The notes below the pieces were generated by a model. That model was not told the DNA's origin, did not search any database, and saw only the letters and a list, made by a program, of their open reading frames with translations. 37,918 nt of DNA from a virus (taxonomy: Duplodnaviria; Caudoviricetes): positions 1-37,918 of IMG/VR virus record IMGVR_UViG_3300017777_003696; one strand, 5' to 3'. Below are positions 1 to 37,918 of this stretch, in pieces (positions within the stretch are counted from its first letter, which is position 1; every line of letters begins with the position of its first letter). The position numbers and the translations under genes were made by a program.

Positions 1-34
1 GGCGGCAGCCCTGGCGGCAGCCCTGGCGGCAGCC
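1..34. repeat. Left copy of 34-nt terminal overlap, built from a 12-nt tandem unit (GGCGGCAGCCCT)
   Basis: GGCGGCAGCCCTGGCGGCAGCCCTGGCGGCAGCC is identical to 37885-37918. Confidence 0.97.
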
Positions 35-378
35 AACTCGTCGCGCGTCGCTTCGCCTACGGCGAAGGCTCGCGCGACTCGTATGCTCTCCCGAGGACGC
101 TTGTCCTCGGGGAATTCCTTTTCATAGATGTGAAGGACGGATTCGGCACAGTCGCACGCGAAGAGACGCGCCAGGCGGTCGCGATCTGCTTCCTGTTCCG
201 GCATTACGCCACGAAGCGCCCAAAGAGCATCGTCGATGCCGTTGCTTTCGAGAATGACGCCGAAATCAATCGGCTTGTCGGTGGGGAATCTGCTCCCGAG
301 GGTGCGGAGCAATTTGGACCAGCCTTCAGTGCAAGGCTGATGTTTGCGGAGGATGGCGAGGGTAATCGTGAGCTTCAT
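1..378 (-). CDS. 5' part of Imm5-like/Ala-repeat phage protein spanning the contig junction (not in ORF track)
   Basis: Hand translation from ATG at 378: MKLTITLAILRKHQPCTEGWSKLL...LESNGIDDALWAL...RLFACDCAESVLHIYEKEFPEDKRPRESIRVARAFAVGEATRDELAAARAAARAAA. The frame is open to base 1. The A-x-x-C-A-E-x-V-L and P-x-D-x-R-P-R motifs are typical of Imm5-like phage proteins. Confidence 0.85.
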   Translation of the reverse strand, partial: MKLTITLAILRKHQPCTEGWSKLLRTLGSRFPTDKPIDFGVILESNGIDDALWALRGVMPEQEADRDRLARLFACDCAESVLHIYEKEFPEDKRPRESIRVARAFAVGEATRDELAAARAAARAAA

Positions 379-19452: not shown

Positions 19453-22400
19453 TGACTGACGAACTGGCACCTTTCTTCGAATCGCGCGAGCTGCGCGTGA
19501 ACCGGCTTCCTGATGAGGCACGGGACAGCTTCAGCCTGGCCGCTACCTCGGCGCGTGAGTCGGGACAGACGGACTTCGAAGATCGTCAGTTTGTCAGCCT
19601 GTGGCTGTCGCGTCGCACTGGGATGCCCCGGACGGACGTGCTGAACAACTTCGACGCCATTGCGTCACGGTTTTTCGGAGACGGTGCAACTGCCTCGAAG
19701 GCATGGGATCAGATCGCGAAAAGCTACGCGCCACCGGCCGAAAAGCAGGATGCCCCGAAAACCGGGGCAAGTTCGGCGGGGCAAGATCCGGAGTTTGCCG
19801 ACACGGAAGGGCTGGCGAAGATGGGCAAGGGCGTGCTCCTGGAAAACGTGGAGCAATCCGGCCGGGCGGCGGGCGCCGGGTTCACCGGCTTTGCCCAGCA
19901 AGTGCCGGCTGGCCTGTATTCGCAGGCGGCGACGGTGCTTCAGTCGCCGGGCCGGCCGAAGTCCGTGTTCGAAGATCGCACCTACCTGGACCTGTCGCGC
20001 GAGCGTGCGCAGATCCTTCGTCCGCCGTTCTGGCCCTACGATCACGACAAAGAGCCGAACGAGCGGGAAGCGAAGCGGCTGGCGAAGATCGACGCGGACA
20101 TGGCGACGCTCGCGAAGCGCAACGACGCGGCGAACCTGGAACGGGTGAAGTCGTTTGCGCAGTCCGACAGCACTGGCATCGCCGACGAATACCGGCGCCT
20201 GGCCGGCTTCTGGTATGACCTGAGCAAAGGCGCCAGCGAACGCATGGGCGTGAATCCGGATTTCGAGAAGACGACGCTGGGCGGCTTCATGAAGAGCGCG
20301 GGAAGCGTGCCGGCGACGGCTGCAATGGCCGTCATGGGGCCCGTGGGCTGGCTGGGCATGGAAGGGTCGTTCTTTGCCCAGGTGGAACAGGAACGCATGG
20401 AGAAGGAGGGCGCGGCCTACGATCCCCAGGCATCGGCGGCGGCGAACCTCGGGTCTGCCTTGCCACAGGCGATCATGGAACGGGCGTTCGGTGTGGAACG
20501 CCTGATGAACAAAGTGCTCGGCGAAGCGGCGAAGCAGTCGGGCAAGGTGACGTTCGGCGACTTCGCCAGGAACTTTGTGCGCGCGGGCCTGACGGCCGGC
20601 GTGGAAGAGGCGATCACTGAGCCGACACAAAACTTCTGGAACGACTACGTTGCTTCCCTGAGCTACGATCAAAACCGGGAGCTGTTCACGGCGGACGCGG
20701 CAAAACAGCGTTTGGTCGAGTCGGTGTCAGCGTTTGCGCTGGGCTTCCTCTTTGGCGGTGGCGTCACGTCTGTCCAGGGCATCGATCAGAATCGCAAGGT
20801 TGCGGCCGGCGAGCGTTACCTGACGACGCGGGACGGCCAGACTCTGGCGCCGGAAGACTTCCGCGTGATGCGCGCGGTGAAGTCCGACCGGGATCTGATG
20901 ACGACGGCGCCGGATGAGGAAACCGGCCGGATGCTCGTCGCGGCGGTGAACGGCGATCAGGCGGCACAAGCCGACTACAACAACCGCGTGCTTCAGTCGC
21001 TCTTCGTGAAGGCGGACGACGTGGACGTGGCCGGGATGTCGGTGGGCATGATCAACGACGTGCCGGCCGTGCGCATGGAAGACGGCGTGATCGTTTCGCT
21101 GGACCTGACGAAAGAGGAAGACCGCGCATTCCTGGACAACTTCAAGCGGGAAGCCGTGAAGGTGAAGGCGACGCAGGACACGCTTGCGGAGATGCAGGCG
21201 CGGCACGGCGACACGCTTGAGGCGAGTCAGCCGGCGAAGCTCGCGACGCTGGAAGAGCGCGTGGCGTCCGGACAGATGACGCAGGAACAGGCGGACGATG
21301 CGTTGGAAGTGGCGAAGACGATCAACGGCCTGGCGGCGGATCTGAAGCTGGGCGATGTGGCGCCGGAAGGGTCCGCCACGACGCGCCAGGACGGCGACGT
21401 GTTCAAGATGGTGGTCGAAGTGGCACAGTCAGCCGATCCGACGAAGGCCATCGAAGAAGTGAGCGAGGCGTATATTCAACGCGCCTACCGGACGCGCGAT
21501 CTTGTCCCGGCTGATCTGAATGACGCGCGGATGCGCTGGCACGAACAGAACGGCGAGGCCGATGCGGCGGCGGGCATGGACGGCGATAAGCTGGACCGGG
21601 CGAACATCGAATGGTTTTCGAAGCGCGTCGTGGAATACGCCGTGGCGAATCGGAAGACCGAACTGCCGGGTGGCTGGGGTGCCTGGCTGCGCACGCTCGG
21701 CGAACAACTGAAGAAATTCCTGGGTGGCGCTGTCCGCATGAAGAAGCTGATGCGCGACGGGAAGCTGGACGCGGAACTGGAAGCGTGGATGAAGGGCGCC
21801 ATCGGCAAGCCGGGCGATGCCTTTGCGATCACGTCAGAGAATGCGAACGCTCGCGCGGAACAGGGGAACGTCGAAGCGGCGCCGGTCGCGTCCGAAGTCG
21901 ATCAGGAAAACCCAGACATCACGTTCGCCCTTACTGGCGTGCCACAGAACGCGACGCAGGCACTTCAGGCCCAGGCGTCGGCGCTTCGGGCGAAGAAGCT
22001 GGCGGCGACGGCACAACTGACGGCACGGCTGCGCAGTGGCGTGCCATTGCCGAAGCGCGCGGCGCTCGTTCGCCGTTCGACACAGGCGAGTCTCGCGGCG
22101 CGCCTGGCGATGCCGATCAGCTCACGTCTGTCGCGCATCAGCCGGCCGCTGGCGCAACGTCTGCGGCGTTTCGAGTTCGACCTGGGCAACGCCATCACAC
22201 GCGACTTCGCCCAGGTGGAAGGCTTCATTCGTGGATTCGAAAAGATGCGGCCGGACGACGCGGCGATCTTAGACTTGGCGCTGAAGAACGGCGACACGGA
22301 CACGCGGGACACGATGCTGGCGGCTTACAACCTGACGGCGGACTTCGCCAAGGTTCAGGCCGTGCTCGAAGCGACGAAGGACAAAGCGAAAGCGGCCGGC

Positions 22401-24025: not shown

Positions 24026-24628
24026 ATGATCTCATCGACCACAGCGAAGGTTCAATTCACCCTTTCGAGCGGCGATCAGTCGCTGGCGATCCCGTTCTAC
24101 TTCCTGGAAAACTCGCATGTGAAGGTCGTTCGCACGCGTAACGGCGTGGACACTACGCTGTCGGCGACGGGTTACTCTCTGACTGGCGCCGGGGCTGAAG
24201 CGGGCGGAACGTGCGTTCTTACTGGCCTGGAATCGGCCGGTGGTGATCGGCTGACAATTCTGCGCAACGTGCCTGCAAGTCAGTTGGTGGACTACGCTCC
24301 GAATGATCGCTTCCCGGCGAGCACGCACGAACGCGCGCTGGATAAGCTGACGATGCTGGGCCAGCGGTTTCTCGAACTGGCGGAACGCGCGCTTCGCTTC
24401 GGCGAGGGCGAGGTGATCGGGAGCGGCAATGTTCTGCCGAATGCCATCACACGCGCGGACAAGATCCTGGCTTTCGATGACGACGGTGCGCTGGACCTGT
24501 CGCTGGGCTTGGACGACGTGCGCACCATCGTCATCGCGAACCCGGTGGCTGCACTTTCGGACGTGACGGATTACGGCTCTGTCGGCGATCCAGTGACAGA
24601 CGTGGCCGATTACGGATCAATCGCATAA
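24026..24628 (+). CDS. Tail fibre adaptor (T7 gp17 N-terminal-like anchor)
   Basis: IPFYFL...VKVV, LTILRNVP..Q..DY, FPASTHERALDKLTM. Ends with two D-V-x-D-Y-G-S repeats. Confidence 0.85.
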   Translation: MISSTTAKVQFTLSSGDQSLAIPFYFLENSHVKVVRTRNGVDTTLSATGYSLTGAGAEAGGTCVLTGLESAGGDRLTILRNVPASQLVDYAPNDRFPASTHERALDKLTMLGQRFLELAERALRFGEGEVIGSGNVLPNAITRADKILAFDDDGALDLSLGLDDVRTIVIANPVAALSDVTDYGSVGDPVTDVADYGSIA

Positions 24629-24647: not shown

Positions 24648-26327
24648 ATGAGCACGGCAATCAAACGGCGTCGGGGAACGACGGTTCAGCACTCCACTTT
24701 TATCGGCCAGCTCGGCGAGCTGACGGTGGACACGGACAAGAAGACTGTCGTGGTTCACGACGGCGTTAAAGCGGGCGGGTTCCCGCTCGCTTCGAATGAC
24801 ATCGTGAACGTCATGTCCTACGGGGCGAAGGGTGACGACACGACGGACGACAGGGCGGCGATTCAGGCGGCGCTCAATGCTGGCGCTGGGAAGGTGGTCA
24901 TCTTTCCGAAGCCGGTTTCCAAATATAAGATCGTCGGCAACCTGAATCCGGTGAGCAACTGCCACATTCGGGGCGAGGGTTATCCGACCATTCACCAGAC
25001 ATCGATCCGATCTCAGTCGATTGAGATCCCGCCAAGCACAACGAATCTGGTGATCGAGGGATTGCGATTCGAGACGGATGGCGCGTTCGATCTTGGGTCG
25101 GCTGGGAACAGCGTGATCGATTTGAACAGTGGTGGTGCGGCTGGTTATTGTTCGAACATCACCGTGCGCGATTGCATCATTGTGGGCACGCCGATCACCG
25201 GGATCAGCATGTATCGCGCGACAGGCGTGCGAATCGAGAGCTGCACGATCAATCACGCCATCGGAGAGCACGGCATTTACCTGTTGGACACGGATCGCGT
25301 CTTCATTCGTGGCAACCGGATCGTTGGTCCCGGCGTGTCTGGGAACGGAAGCAACGGCATCAAGCTTTCGGGCGCGTCCACGCAATTCACGATCTCGGAC
25401 AACCTGGTTTATTCTACTGCCACCTATGGAATCATGGTGACGGAGCAAGGTGGTGGCCGTCCGACCTATGGGAGTGTGGCGAACAACTCCATCGAAAGCG
25501 CGTTCGTTGGCATGTATATCTTCGGGGACAATATCAGCATCACGGGGAACGTGCTGAAGACTCCGACTCGCAACGGGATCGAAATTACGGGGAGCACGAA
25601 CGTCACTTGCGTGGGCAATGTGATCAAGGGCGTGGCGACGGCTGGCTATCACGGGATTTCCGTGGATGTGGACGGTGGGACAGTGAGCGGCAACGTCATC
25701 ACGGATTGCCCGCGCGGCATCGAGATCGGGATCGGATGCGTGGGGCTTCGCATCTGTGACAACATGCTGAACAACACGGCGAACACTGGCACGCGGGCCT
25801 TCAACCTGGCCGGCCCGCTCGCCGGGTTTATTCCCGTGTGGATCTACAACAATACGGCTCTCGGTTACGCGGATCTGATGTTCTACGCGGATGAATATTG
25901 CTACGAATGGGGCAACGTTCTCAGCACAACGCAGACGATCCCACAGACGCGCGGCACTTCTTGCCTGAAGGCCGCGAGCGTTGGGGCTGGCACAACTGCC
26001 GGCTATATGCGCACGAACGCGGAGGTTTATATTCACACGTCGGAAGGCAATATTGTGAACAAGGCGTCCACGGATGATCTTTGGAATTTAGGGGCACTGA
26101 CCACGGCGGCGGGCATGTATGCGAAGGTAGCACTGTGCCTGAGCAGCTCGGCTGTCGCCAGCATCGTGAAGGGCGCGGAAGCGAATTCACGCAACGGCTC
26201 GAAGCTGCCGTGGGTTCGTCGTTCGCTGGCTATTGTCGGCTACGTGCAACTGGAACCGAGTTATGCGGGCGGCGCGCTGGGTGGCGCGTTTATGTCCGAC
26301 ACGATTGGCCTTCAAAACATGCCATGA
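24648..26327 (+). CDS. Tailspike/depolymerase: Mtd_N-like head plus right-handed beta-helix
   Basis: RRGTT.QHSTF.G..GELTVDTDKKTVVVHDG..AGGFPLA (Mtd_N-like), NVMSYGAKGD.TTDD.AAIQAAL (pectate-lyase-3-like start), repeated I.GN.I strands. AAGGA RBS. Confidence 0.9.
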   Translation: MSTAIKRRRGTTVQHSTFIGQLGELTVDTDKKTVVVHDGVKAGGFPLASNDIVNVMSYGAKGDDTTDDRAAIQAALNAGAGKVVIFPKPVSKYKIVGNLNPVSNCHIRGEGYPTIHQTSIRSQSIEIPPSTTNLVIEGLRFETDGAFDLGSAGNSVIDLNSGGAAGYCSNITVRDCIIVGTPITGISMYRATGVRIESCTINHAIGEHGIYLLDTDRVFIRGNRIVGPGVSGNGSNGIKLSGASTQFTISDNLVYSTATYGIMVTEQGGGRPTYGSVANNSIESAFVGMYIFGDNISITGNVLKTPTRNGIEITGSTNVTCVGNVIKGVATAGYHGISVDVDGGTVSGNVITDCPRGIEIGIGCVGLRICDNMLNNTANTGTRAFNLAGPLAGFIPVWIYNNTALGYADLMFYADEYCYEWGNVLSTTQTIPQTRGTSCLKAASVGAGTTAGYMRTNAEVYIHTSEGNIVNKASTDDLWNLGALTTAAGMYAKVALCLSSSAVASIVKGAEANSRNGSKLPWVRRSLAIVGYVQLEPSYAGGALGGAFMSDTIGLQNMP

Positions 26328-26794
26328 TGAAAGCGTTCCGCTTCAACTTCCTCGCCGTCCTGTTCCTCGGGGTGGCTTTCATCCTGGCGGGGTGTGGCCC
26401 GAAGGCGCCAGACCGCTCGCTGATCTTGTGGGAACAACCTTCGCCGGAAATTGCGGCGAAGGCGTACGCGCGCGACGGCGCCGGGGTGTTGCGTGTGTTC
26501 CACGTTCTTCCGACCGGAAGCATGGAGCCGTTTCTAACTGGCGGGGATTGGATCGTGGTGGACTTCGGCGTTCCGTTCACGGCGATCAAGGCGGGCGATT
26601 TGCTCGTGTATCAGGCAAATTGGCTTCCGGCCGATTCGCCTCCGGTGACGCACATGGCGGCGGCGCGAAGCGGGCCTGGCTGGGCGATGGATGGCATCGC
26701 GAATCGCCACTATGAGAACGGCACGCAAACCATGATGCCGGCCGATTATCGCGGGAAGGTGATCCAGGTTTACACGAAGCGGAAGAAGACGTGA
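26324..26794 (+). CDS. Lipoprotein with S26 (SipW/ER-type) signal-peptidase-like domain
   Basis: Signal peptide with LAGC lipobox. TGSMEP (26516-26530), GD.IVV, I.AGD..VY, VTH (26645-26653) and G.AN motifs. The ATG at 26324 overlaps the tailspike stop. Confidence 0.8.
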   Translation: MMKAFRFNFLAVLFLGVAFILAGCGPKAPDRSLILWEQPSPEIAAKAYARDGAGVLRVFHVLPTGSMEPFLTGGDWIVVDFGVPFTAIKAGDLLVYQANWLPADSPPVTHMAAARSGPGWAMDGIANRHYENGTQTMMPADYRGKVIQVYTKRKKT

Positions 26795-27537
26795 AGACTC
26801 CGCTGACAACGACGCAACGCGTGGCGCTTCGCGGCTTGTTTGCCGCGCTGGCCTTGGTTGCTGTCGTTGCCTGGGCGGTGTTCGTCTCTGGGTGCCAGGT
26901 GGCACAGTGGCGCGTCCTTCAGAAGAAGGTGGACGGCGCCGATGGCGTGAAGCCGGCCGCACAAGTGGAAGGGGAGAAGCGCGCGGCGGCTTACATCGTC
27001 GCCAGGACGACGCCACCCGTGGCAGATCCGGCCGTGGCCGTTCAGGATGTGAACCAGGTGGCAACGGGCCTTTCTTCGTCCCTGGGACAGCCGGCAACGC
27101 CTGTCACGACGGCGGACAGGGACGCCGCGATCGCCACCCTGACGGCGGGCCTGAAGGCGAAGGACGCGCAACTGGACAAGTGGCGGGCGTTCGGACGGAA
27201 ACATGCCGGCGTCGCGCTGGAAGACACGGGGATCAATCTTGCCGGGCCGGCCGGATTGCTCGCCTTCGCCGGGGTGATCGCGGCGTGCATCTTCGTGCCT
27301 GGCTTCGGTTACGTGCTGCTTCGCTTGGTTCCCGTCCTGTGGGGCATGGTGAAGCGGATGGCGGCGGGTATCGAGTCGTTCGCGGCGGATGCGCCGGCCC
27401 AGGGGAAGGTTTTGAAAGAAGCCTACCTGTCGCGGAAGATGAACGAGGTGGACAAACGAATTGTGAAACAGCGAAAAAAGGCCATCCGGCCGGAAGAACT
27501 AATTTCAGCGGCTTCCGTCGCTGTGCCTACCCCCTAA
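26791..27537 (+). CDS. Membrane lipoprotein with C-terminal TM region (u-spanin-like topology)
   Basis: N-terminal signal with VSGC lipobox, helical middle, hydrophobic GLLAFAGVIAACIFVPGFGYVLL segment, basic tail. Confidence 0.55.
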   Translation: MKTPLTTTQRVALRGLFAALALVAVVAWAVFVSGCQVAQWRVLQKKVDGADGVKPAAQVEGEKRAAAYIVARTTPPVADPAVAVQDVNQVATGLSSSLGQPATPVTTADRDAAIATLTAGLKAKDAQLDKWRAFGRKHAGVALEDTGINLAGPAGLLAFAGVIAACIFVPGFGYVLLRLVPVLWGMVKRMAAGIESFAADAPAQGKVLKEAYLSRKMNEVDKRIVKQRKKAIRPEELISAASVAVPTP

Positions 27538-27771
27538 ATGAACGACTTCCTCAATCGCATTGCTGACGAAGTGAAGCCTGGTGTGGCGCACACGGTGGGA
27601 GCCGTGTCGGGCGGCACTGGCTTGGTGTTGTGGGCGGACATCGCGAAGCATCTAACGATCATGATGGGCCTGTTGATCGCCGTCATGGCGTTCATCGGTG
27701 GCGTGTTCTACGCCACATATTGGGCGATCAAGGCGCTGCGGGAGTGGAAGGAAATGCGGAAGAGCGGCTGA
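27538..27771 (+). CDS. Holin-like small membrane protein
   Basis: 77 aa, 1-2 hydrophobic segments, charged C terminus. Last gene of the late arm. Confidence 0.55.
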   Translation: MNDFLNRIADEVKPGVAHTVGAVSGGTGLVLWADIAKHLTIMMGLLIAVMAFIGGVFYATYWAIKALREWKEMRKSG

Positions 27772-28291
27772 TGCGCTCGGCGTTTGTCTTCTGGCCGTGG
27801 CACGCCAGGCATCGAATCGCGTAGGCGCCGACATCTTCAGGCGTCAGGCGCCGGATGAATTCGCCGACGTGCTCGAAGCTGGTGAGTGTTCCACATGGAA
27901 CAACGTGGTCGATTTGCACCTGTTTCCGGGGGAACGGCTTTTTGCAGTCGTGGCACAGGTAGGCCCATTTCTGGCCATTCGGCCCTTTGCACGGGAAGCG
28001 GGCGGCATGGAGCGCGGCGACGGCCGGCTTCCAGAAGCGGGACATGCGGCGAAGGCACGAACGTATTGCCTGCCAGTATTGGGCTTCCGTCCAGGTGGCG
28101 GCGTTGCGGGTGCGCGGAACGCGGCCGTCGCGCTTTCCTTTCGATTTGGCGGGGGTGGCTCCCTTCACCTGGACCTGGGGGACTTCTGGCTTCCTGGGCG
28201 CCAGGGCGGCGGGCAAGCCATCGCTGGCGTTCGCGGCCAGGAAACCGAGTGATGCCTTGGGGAAGCGTTCGCGGAGCTGGGCGAATGTCAT
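27728..28291 (-). CDS. HNH endonuclease-like protein
   Basis: CHDC...VQIDHVVP...CLACH..KT. Confidence 0.85.
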   Translation of the reverse strand: MTFAQLRERFPKASLGFLAANASDGLPAALAPRKPEVPQVQVKGATPAKSKGKRDGRVPRTRNAATWTEAQYWQAIRSCLRRMSRFWKPAVAALHAARFPCKGPNGQKWAYLCHDCKKPFPRKQVQIDHVVPCGTLTSFEHVGEFIRRLTPEDVGAYAIRCLACHGQKTNAERISRSSAFPSTPAAP

Positions 28292-28557: not shown

Positions 28558-29015
28558 GCGGGCTTCCTCCCGGTGCAAGCGGACGGCGGCGTGGAATAGT
28601 CGTGAAGCCAGCGGCCGAATCGCTTGCCCGTCTTTTGATCGCGTCCGTCAATGTGGACGACGAACGGCTTCACGGCTGTCACCTGAATGCCTTCGCCTCC
28701 GTTGAACTTTGCGGCCGGGCAACGGCATTCCGTTCCGGCGCGGTGGATGCAATCGCGACAGATCGCCATCACGCCAGGGATAGGCGCGTTCACGGGCGCC
28801 TCGGCATACAGGCGCGGGTGCGGTTCAATGATCGTGTCGGAGCATTGCCGGCAAAGAATGACGAAGATGCGCTGGGGTTGATCGGCCGCGTCGTGCTCGA
28901 TCCAGGTGGCAACGCGGTGGGACGATTGGCATTTCTGGCACAAGAGCGGGCTGACGCACGCGGGCAGGGTGACGGACAGGCGGGGCCAGGTGGCGGGGTC
29001 GGACTTCGGTTTCAC
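28554..29015 (-). CDS. Cys-rich putative zinc-binding protein
   Basis: CQKC, CRQC, CRDC and CRC motifs. GTG start at 29015 overlaps the upstream stop. Confidence 0.7.
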   Translation of the reverse strand: MKPKSDPATWPRLSVTLPACVSPLLCQKCQSSHRVATWIEHDAADQPQRIFVILCRQCSDTIIEPHPRLYAEAPVNAPIPGVMAICRDCIHRAGTECRCPAAKFNGGEGIQVTAVKPFVVHIDGRDQKTGKRFGRWLHDYSTPPSACTGRKPA

Positions 29016-29332
29016 TTGAAGAAGAGAACGATGGTTTGATTCACGTAGGCGAGGGTCACGACGTAAGCGACGATCGGGCCGATAATGATGGCCGCGATGA
29101 CAAGTGGGCGGTGGCGGCGCCGGACTAGAAAGAGCGCGATCAGTCCAGCGACGAACACGACGCCAGGAATCGCCCAGATCGTGGTGAAGCAAACGAGAAT
29201 GCCGGCCATGATGGCACAGAGAAAAGCCAGCGCGTTGAAAGGGGTGGCTTCGGCTTCGTCGCCAGTGAGACGGCAAGCGAGAACGTAGAAGATGACGGCC
29301 AGGACGGCGAGGGTGATGGCTGCGGTGATCAT
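29012..29332 (-). CDS. Small multi-pass membrane protein
   Basis: About four hydrophobic segments in 106 aa. The ATG at 29332 overlaps the methyltransferase stop. Confidence 0.7.
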   Translation of the reverse strand: MITAAITLAVLAVIFYVLACRLTGDEAEATPFNALAFLCAIMAGILVCFTTIWAIPGVVFVAGLIALFLVRRRHRPLVIAAIIIGPIVAYVVTLAYVNQTIVLFFK

Positions 29333-29826
29333 GGGCGCTTCCATTTCCAAGTGTTGAAGCCGGCGACGCCGAAGCCGAAGACGGAAAGGATGCAATCCTT
29401 CGGGTAGCCCCAGGTCGGGTTCGCCGGATTGAACGCGATGCGGCCCTGAAGCGCGGCAACGATGGCCTGGCCGTGGACGTGATCAGCGAACCAGTTCGAT
29501 CCAACGCTGGCCGGCGTGAGGAAAAGGATCTTCGCGCCCAGGGCGCCTTCCTCGCGGCACTTCTTTGCCCAGGGCGCGATGTTGTCGAAGGGCGGGTTCA
29601 GCCAAAGCAGGCCAGGAATCTTGTGCCACTCTTGGCGAAGCGAGTCGTCCGCGATGCTGAAGAAGTTCGCGTGTTTGGTGTTCGCGGCGTGCGCGGCGAG
29701 GTCGAAATTGATCGGGCCGAAGCGTCGGGTTACGGCTTCCATGAATTCGGGCGGGGTGGCGTAATCCTGTTTCGAGCTGGCGCGGTTAAACCCGGCGCCC
29801 GTGCGTTTGGTTGGTGAAGCGATCAT
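29329..29826 (-). CDS. Phage DNA N6-adenine methyltransferase
   Basis: DYATP, FDLAA...NTK, DSL.QEW, WLNPPF catalytic motif and GRIAF. ATG at 29826. Confidence 0.9.
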   Translation of the reverse strand: MIASPTKRTGAGFNRASSKQDYATPPEFMEAVTRRFGPINFDLAAHAANTKHANFFSIADDSLRQEWHKIPGLLWLNPPFDNIAPWAKKCREEGALGAKILFLTPASVGSNWFADHVHGQAIVAALQGRIAFNPANPTWGYPKDCILSVFGFGVAGFNTWKWKRP

Positions 29827-37827: not shown

Positions 37828-37918
37828 TTAGGAAGCTTCTCCGTCGCTGGCCGGCGTGACGAAATAATGGCGGTATTTTTTCGCGGCGGCAGCCCTGGCG
37901 GCAGCCCTGGCGGCAGCC
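37828..37918 (-). CDS. 3' part of the junction-spanning Imm5-like/Ala-repeat protein
   Basis: Reads AAARAAARAAA-AKKYRHYFVTPASDGEAS-stop (TAA at 37830-37828). In frame with 1..378 after merging the 34-nt overlap. The stop lies 2 nt before the next ATG. Confidence 0.8.
   Translation of the reverse strand, partial: AAARAAARAAAAKKYRHYFVTPASDGEAS
37885..37918. repeat. Right copy of 34-nt terminal overlap
   Basis: Identical to 1-34. Confidence 0.97.

Follow-up and report, generated by a model that had tools for sequence, protein, structure and literature searches.

How does a phage burst a diderm host when no wall-digesting enzyme can be recognised in its genome? Tailed double-stranded DNA phages of such hosts are taken to need a holin, an endolysin and a spanin. 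The question is raised by IMG/VR record IMGVR_UViG_3300017777_003696, a podovirus genome of ~38 kb in which Pfam and PHROGs identify capsid, portal, terminase, T7-like tail and ejection genes and which was analysed over its whole length of 37,918 nucleotides (the window). Directly behind its tailspike gene lie three genes, g1, g2 and g3, which encode a peptidase, a spanin-like protein and a holin-like protein. Here, we tentatively identify g1-g2-g3 as a likely lysis cassette of an Opitutales phage in which g1 is an accessory envelope protease, a helper rather than an essential endolysin.

By sequence profiles, no endolysin or other muralytic family was found in the window; the unassigned open reading frames (ORFs) were not folded, so that a novel muralytic fold could remain among them. 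The Pfam scan covered 48 ORFs, four more, two in the junction region and all 98 remaining six-frame ORFs of at least 85 amino acids (aa), while PHROGs was run on the 48 ORFs and NCBIfam on 17. Six-frame searches of the window for SLT and GH24 domains returned nothing, and their positive controls worked. A home-made profile of four lysozyme-like proteins from relatives matched in no window frame, and an 81-sequence i-type lysozyme profile had no match in the window. A sequence-only reading of this DNA had likewise recognised no muralytic motif in the genome, and within the stated reach of the profiles that observation stands.

The first gene, g1 (26324..26794, plus strand; 156 aa), encodes a lipoprotein peptidase with a predicted Ser66-His110-Glu131 triad. 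Its ATG overlaps the tailspike stop codon as ATGA, and the protein carries an LAGC24 lipobox (Cys24) and the boxes GSMEP, GD, VTH and GIAN. Structure prediction was run on g1 and g2, and the predicted structure of g1 has the LexA/signal-peptidase fold. Ser66 and His110, which align with S68 and H108 of SEC11C, are invariant in 134 of 134 aligned rows. Glu131 aligns with the triad Asp of SEC11 (D134; Asp122/134, box E) and is Glu in 121 and Asp in 10 of the 134 rows. The structural salt bridge of the SEC11 type (Arg97/109-Asp116/128) is absent from window g1, which has M111/I125 at these positions; in the family the Arg-Asp pair is kept in 76/134 rows and both residues are lost in 56/134. The SipW/endoplasmic reticulum-type Ser-His core noted earlier is thus confirmed, yet the protein remains below the curated family cut-offs (23.4 versus 51.85 bits for TIGR02228; 13.5 versus 190 for SipW) and has no Pfam match. 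The Ser-His-Glu site of g1 is thus intact, and the protein would be a protease anchored to a membrane, proteolytically active and located in the periplasm. In a tree of the family, 23 of the 26 phage copies form one clade separate from the chromosomal copies, and the window copy groups with those of L002-L004 (100/95; rough bootstrap; G and L numbers are our handles for genomes and loci). Many host paralogues have cleavable signal peptides.

The start of g2 (26791..27537, plus strand; 248 aa) overlaps the end of g1 (GTGA). Its product has a VSGC35 lipobox, a helical periplasmic part (residues 36-150), a membrane segment (hydropathy peak at 147-185; helix at 153-200 in the predicted model) and a tail of ~60 residues. 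Cys35, conserved in 87 of 90 rows, is followed mostly by A, Q or S, i.e., by no inner-membrane retention residue, according to a sorting rule that comes from E. coli and may not hold in the host. A conserved TGxNLAGP motif lies directly before the membrane segment and is kept also where g1 is absent. We found 89 relatives of g2, many on phage-sized contigs, and no family or sequence match in Pfam, PHROGs or GenBank phages, nor a fold match for its model. The model is helical and lacks the beta-rich periplasmic domain of the T1 gp11 family, to which g2 also shows no sequence likeness. Thus, its topology suggests that g2 is a one-piece spanin outside the T1 family. A second Cys (residue 166; 89/90 rows) lies inside the membrane segment in a lipobox-like context. 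Distant homologues (~20% identity; L088, L089, L091 and L092) are found behind tail-tip-like genes with no adjoining peptidase or holin-like gene, at three places in one Opitutales genome and at one in another (G282, G318).

The ATG of g3 (27538..27771, plus strand; 77 aa) directly follows the g2 stop codon. The protein is hydrophobic at residues 29-64, has a basic C-terminus and matches no described holin family in Pfam, PHROGs or NCBIfam. Homologues lie behind g2 in G003 and L018; among phages the gene downstream of g2 varies and almost always encodes a small membrane protein. By its small size, hydrophobic stretch, basic end and position beside lysis genes, g3 is holin-like. Altogether, the overlaps and abutment, the lipoboxes and the boxes bear out the earlier description of three translationally coupled, membrane-targeted genes behind the tailspike.

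Several lines of evidence from other phages support the idea that these genes form a cassette around g2. First, g2 is present on 30 distinct other contigs (duplicate records merged), four of them without upstream sequence. Among the 26 informative loci, 14 have a g1-type peptidase in the slot upstream of g2 (they fall into 7 clusters at 75% identity) and two a papain-like lipoprotein unrelated to it (L014 and L018, the latter with a g2 67% identical to that of the window); two others keep a short anchor remnant there (L008 and L013), and the last eight have neither. The remnants are short g2-coupled ORFs (L008:5054-5155 and L013:9909-9989) that resemble peptidase deletions; one corresponds to the anchor at the N-terminus of the L123 copy, and the other consists of an anchor and the family's last beta-strand motif. 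Second, the g1 family also lies upstream of other lipoprotein-plus-transmembrane (TM) families, at least three of them unrelated, or of 3TM-holin-like genes, one of which scores above the GTA_holin_3TM cut-off. Third, the papain-like family, which has an invariant Cys81 and His124 and whose nearest structure is the C-terminal domain of the MOA/PSL lectins (E 0.004), precedes spanin- or holin-like genes in 9/9 further viral loci. Fourth, a gene with a hydrophobic segment follows within two genes in 25 of 32 peptidase clusters compared to 18 of 364 background genes, and in 19 of 26 when the six clusters reached through g2, or from the window, are left out; the subfamily query was seeded from cassette copies, and some bias remains. 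The lysis-cassette position proposed earlier is supported, and in unrelated phages, too, both protease types stand before other genes of the spanin- or holin-like kind. Thus, g2 is the core of the cassette, and the protease is an accessory that is swapped or lost.

Further genes were noted in cassette phages and relatives. Behind the holin-like gene, many unrelated cassette loci have a gene for a calcineurin-like metallophosphoesterase (L025, L026, L031, L033, L041, L100, L101, L106 and L107). The cassette phages G631 (L146:8406-10454) and G640 (L143-L144) have genes for an amidoligase, a COOH-NH2 ligase and a glutamine amidotransferase, and Acb2/Tad1-like hairpin proteins and ART-PolyVal domains are present among the relatives G005 (L048:2992, L049:8025), G008 (L051:6978) and G632 (L137:5618).

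Completeness is 89% or more in ten cassette phages (G000, G003, G004, G005, G627, G628, G631, G632, G639 and G640); the Pfam scan of these ten covered gap ORFs and called genes down to a length of 70 or 85 aa, with some cassette, capsid, portal and terminase genes left out. One of them, G003, is complete, syntenic with the window and has a capsid protein 82% identical to that of the window. This phage keeps g2 and g3, while its peptidase is reduced to a 33-aa anchor remnant; no muramidase was found in G003, where part of the ejection protein was covered by six-frame searches only. This genome is difficult to reconcile with the earlier proposal if the peptidase is taken as an obligatory substitute for the endolysin. 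Because the protease is swapped or lost in related phages, g1 likely aids lysis but is not required for it. Among cultured phages, the Verrucomicrobia phage P8625 (KP792622) lyses a Puniceicoccales strain, and its description, as far as consulted, annotates no lysis gene (PMC4642752); Pfam, run on 27 of the 52 proteins, and home-made profiles, run on 40, detected no lysin.

The host is likely a member of the Opitutales, a call that rests on binning and gene sharing rather than on spacers or an integrated copy and that agrees with the Opitutae host suggested earlier. A contig in an Opitutaceae metagenome-assembled genome (MAG) combines g2 with eight syntenic homologues of early genes of the window, mostly at 46-56% identity. 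Of 251 Opitutales genomes, 67 contain members of the g1 family, frequently 2-4 of them, and none was found in 151 Gemmatimonadetes genomes; in a draw of 101 Verrucomicrobiota genomes 9/9 strong matches were in Opitutales, the other nine matches being weak and partial. The papain-like family is present in 10 of 121 Opitutaceae. An atypical wall had also been suspected for the host, and in Opitutaceae the transglycosylase domain of class A penicillin-binding proteins (PBPs) was found in 1/81 genomes, compared to 39/101 in the phylum and 10/14 controls; SEDS and MreB are present in 41/41 Opitutaceae genomes. In the passages available to us, Opitutaceae are described with low diaminopimelic acid and ftsI as sole PBP (PMC5303756), and bacteria lacking class A PBPs are described as having a sparser, less rigid wall (PMC8406291). 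The largely free-living Opitutaceae fit the definition of "peptidoglycan-intermediate" bacteria, which that second source describes as host-associated; its passages on the subject do not name Opitutales. In Opitutales chromosomes, 17 of 30 loci (L057-L086) have two adjoining g1-family genes, 15 divergent and two convergent, typically one for a lipoprotein and one for a protein with a cleavable signal, and often near response-regulator genes; in L242, a papain-like gene adjoins a g1-family gene.

We suggest the following model for the cassette. g3 would open the inner membrane as a holin, and g2 would join and disrupt both membranes as a one-piece spanin. On a thin wall made without class A PBPs, holin and spanin may nearly suffice for the burst, with little or no phage muramidase. 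The captured host-type protease, anchored on the periplasmic side, would cut protein tethers or residual peptide links and in that way improve the burst. A broader version, which we consider possible but hold with less confidence, is that Opitutales phages have a muramidase-free route of lysis consisting of a holin and a new helical one-piece spanin, in which the endolysin slot was taken over, on at least two independent occasions, by lipoprotein proteases captured from the host (one of the Ser-His-Glu signal-peptidase fold, the other of the papain fold) that cut the protein or peptide links by which this unusual envelope is held together.

A number of observations weigh against the proposed model. 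Seven of the ten near-complete cassette phages have no muralytic gene by Pfam, a count for which no base rate was measured in comparable uncultured phages, and small genes of the lysozyme fold lie in the early regions of the other three, remote from the cassette. These are an i-type (destabilase) lysozyme gene in G004 (26.2 bits, at the Pfam cut-off), an SLT gene in G627 (25.5 bits, above the cut-off) and, in G632, a homologue of the G627 SLT protein (E 4e-12) that Pfam missed; such small genes are easily missed. Relatives with both the peptidase and a normal endolysin had been named by the sequence-only reading as a case against it, and this case is partly realised, in that three near-complete relatives have the peptidase and a lysozyme-fold gene, the latter small and elsewhere in the genome. 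Moreover, the peptidases of L002, L004 and L005 sit among non-lysis genes and, because L002-L004 are the nearest tree neighbours of window g1, the enzyme also has a role outside cassettes. Neither g2 nor g3 matches a spanin or holin family. Regarding the host, a 1.8-kb g2 contig is binned in a Gemmatimonadetes MAG, and MAG binning is weak host evidence. Finally, Opitutaceae do possess sacculi, as reported in the passages available to us (PMC5303756). The G004 lysozyme (L046:11250-11630) has a signal peptide and 138 close relatives on viral contigs (L149-L228), and no match among GenBank phages.

Among the alternatives, we consider it unlikely that g1 is a receptor-removal or exclusion protease of the late operon, which would clip receptors or other surface proteins and so counter progeny loss on debris or superinfection, leaving lysis to g2 and g3 alone. 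The T5 lipoprotein Llp, encoded next to a receptor-binding gene, is a precedent, and g1 lies directly behind the tailspike gene, is dispensable in G003, L013 and L090, and has its nearest tree neighbours outside lysis cassettes. However, two unrelated proteases both keep the slot before spanin- or holin-like genes, even away from a receptor-binding gene: the cassette precedes the head protease in G004 and a tail gene in L007. Moreover, the tailspike of the window is of the beta-helix type, and such tailspikes usually bind polysaccharide rather than protein.

It is rather improbable that g1 is incidental and that some other place in the window, an early ORF or a part of an ejection protein, codes for an endolysin that has escaped recognition. 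The lysozyme-fold genes in the early regions of G004, G627 and G632, one of which escaped Pfam, make this conceivable, as do a small gene of the same fold in an Opitutaceae prophage and the ~15 window ORFs that are without a family and were not folded. By contrast, the two lysozyme profiles described above find nothing in the window, its unassigned early ORFs lack export signals except for a multi-TM protein of 110 aa, and the only resemblance of the large ejection protein's N-terminal 820 residues is to polyvalent-protein clusters. That 110-aa protein of the early arm (29012-29344, minus strand) has several hydrophobic segments and no family, and is possibly an exclusion protein or a second holin-like protein.

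We regard as improbable that g1 is itself a new kind of endolysin, in which a signal-peptidase fold cuts stem peptides or cross-links of peptidoglycan and the papain-like protein does likewise. g1 does occupy the endolysin slot, and the alternative occupant has a papain-like Cys-His core of a fold class that includes the NlpC/P60 and CHAP wall hydrolases; many host paralogues, with their cleavable signal peptides, would act away from the membrane. To our knowledge, no member of the LexA/signal-peptidase fold cuts peptidoglycan. Furthermore, an exported, anchored enzyme would escape holin timing, and complete or syntenic relatives have lost g1, which is also found together with lysozyme-fold genes. 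Least of all do we expect g1 to be a dedicated signal peptidase that matures or releases g2 or g3 in the manner of SipW with TasA, a role in processing the adjacent spanin-like protein having been proposed earlier: translational coupling, the fold and the TGxNLAGP motif of g2 would fit, but g2 occurs with the papain-like enzyme or without a protease in 12 of the 26 informative loci and keeps its motif there, and g1 precedes at least three unrelated lipoprotein-TM families as well as 3TM-holin-like genes without a spanin-like neighbour.

The surroundings of the cassette bear on its place in the genome. The tailspike gene (24648..26327, plus strand; Mtd_N and beta-helix by Pfam and PHROGs) precedes it, and an HNH nuclease gene (27728..28291, minus strand), the final gene of the converging early arm, overlaps the 3' end of g3; the cassette is therefore the end of the late operon. 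The T7-like fibre adaptor (24026-24628) and the Mtd_N tailspike are two genes in the window and a single gene of 713 aa in G003. In its classification the record counts as a complete virus bearing direct terminal repeats, and a 34-nt terminal repeat (1..34 = 37885-37918) indicates circular completeness. It lies inside an Imm5-like gene that spans the genome junction (1-378, minus strand, and 37831-37918), in an alanine-coding 12-nt tandem repeat, so that the number of repeats is uncertain. A duplicate record of identical sequence (38,007 bases) starts at window position 21905 and crosses the junction; thus, at most 123 bases are unseen there.

If our model is correct, the cassette has given up its muralytic member, with or without one of two unrelated proteases in its place, in phages of a family that has no class A PBPs and about whose wall there was long dispute. 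g2 is then a candidate new spanin family, the two proteases are probes for the load-bearing parts of the Opitutales envelope, and the cassette allows a direct test of whether a holin and a spanin suffice on a thin wall. Cultured Opitutaceae and the cultured Opitutae phage P8625, which has no annotated lysin, make the question testable. No description of this cassette type was found in the literature searched, the consulted part of a 2025 survey of lytic proteins does not mention Verrucomicrobia (PMC12596118), and GenBank phages contain no match to g1, g2 or the papain-like protein.

Compared to known systems, g1 resembles SEC11A/C, the archaeal signal peptidase I (TIGR02228) and Bacillus SipW in its box B Ser, box D His, acidic residue at the triad position, LexA/signal-peptidase fold and small size. 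It differs from them in having Glu rather than Asp in the triad, Met/Ile in place of the Arg-Asp pair and, in the window copy, a lipoprotein signal where they have a TM anchor, in scoring far under their cut-offs and in occurring in phage lysis-type cassettes. The papain-like occupant is closest to the C-terminal papain-like domain of MOA/PSL1a (Pfam Agglutinin_C); unlike these lectins, it is a stand-alone lipoprotein of phages and Opitutaceae chromosomes and scores under the Pfam cut-off. One-piece spanins (u-spanins) combine an outer-membrane lipoprotein signal with a C-terminal TM domain, and in the T1 family the middle part is beta-rich, according to the portion of the source consulted (PMC6139136). 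Like T1 gp11-type proteins, g2 has an N-terminal lipobox, a periplasm-sized Cys-free middle part, a C-terminal membrane segment and a lysis position. Unlike T1 gp11, it has a helical middle part, a tail of ~60 residues, a conserved Cys166 in the membrane segment and no sequence or fold match, is not the last gene and has no endolysin beside it. P8625 is similar in that a lysin is neither annotated nor detected and that two small membrane genes follow the tail genes, succeeded by a phosphoesterase-like gene (P8625_29) as in many cassette loci; it differs in lacking homologues of g1, g2 and the papain-like protein, and it is weakly similar to the holin-like neighbours (E 0.016, 0.95). With the canonical holin-endolysin-spanin cassette, the genes described here share the late-operon end, the coupling and the holin-like and spanin-like members, while the usual muralytic position holds a protease, a remnant or nothing. 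Altogether, we regard these genes as a new and widespread variant of the holin-spanin lysis cassette.

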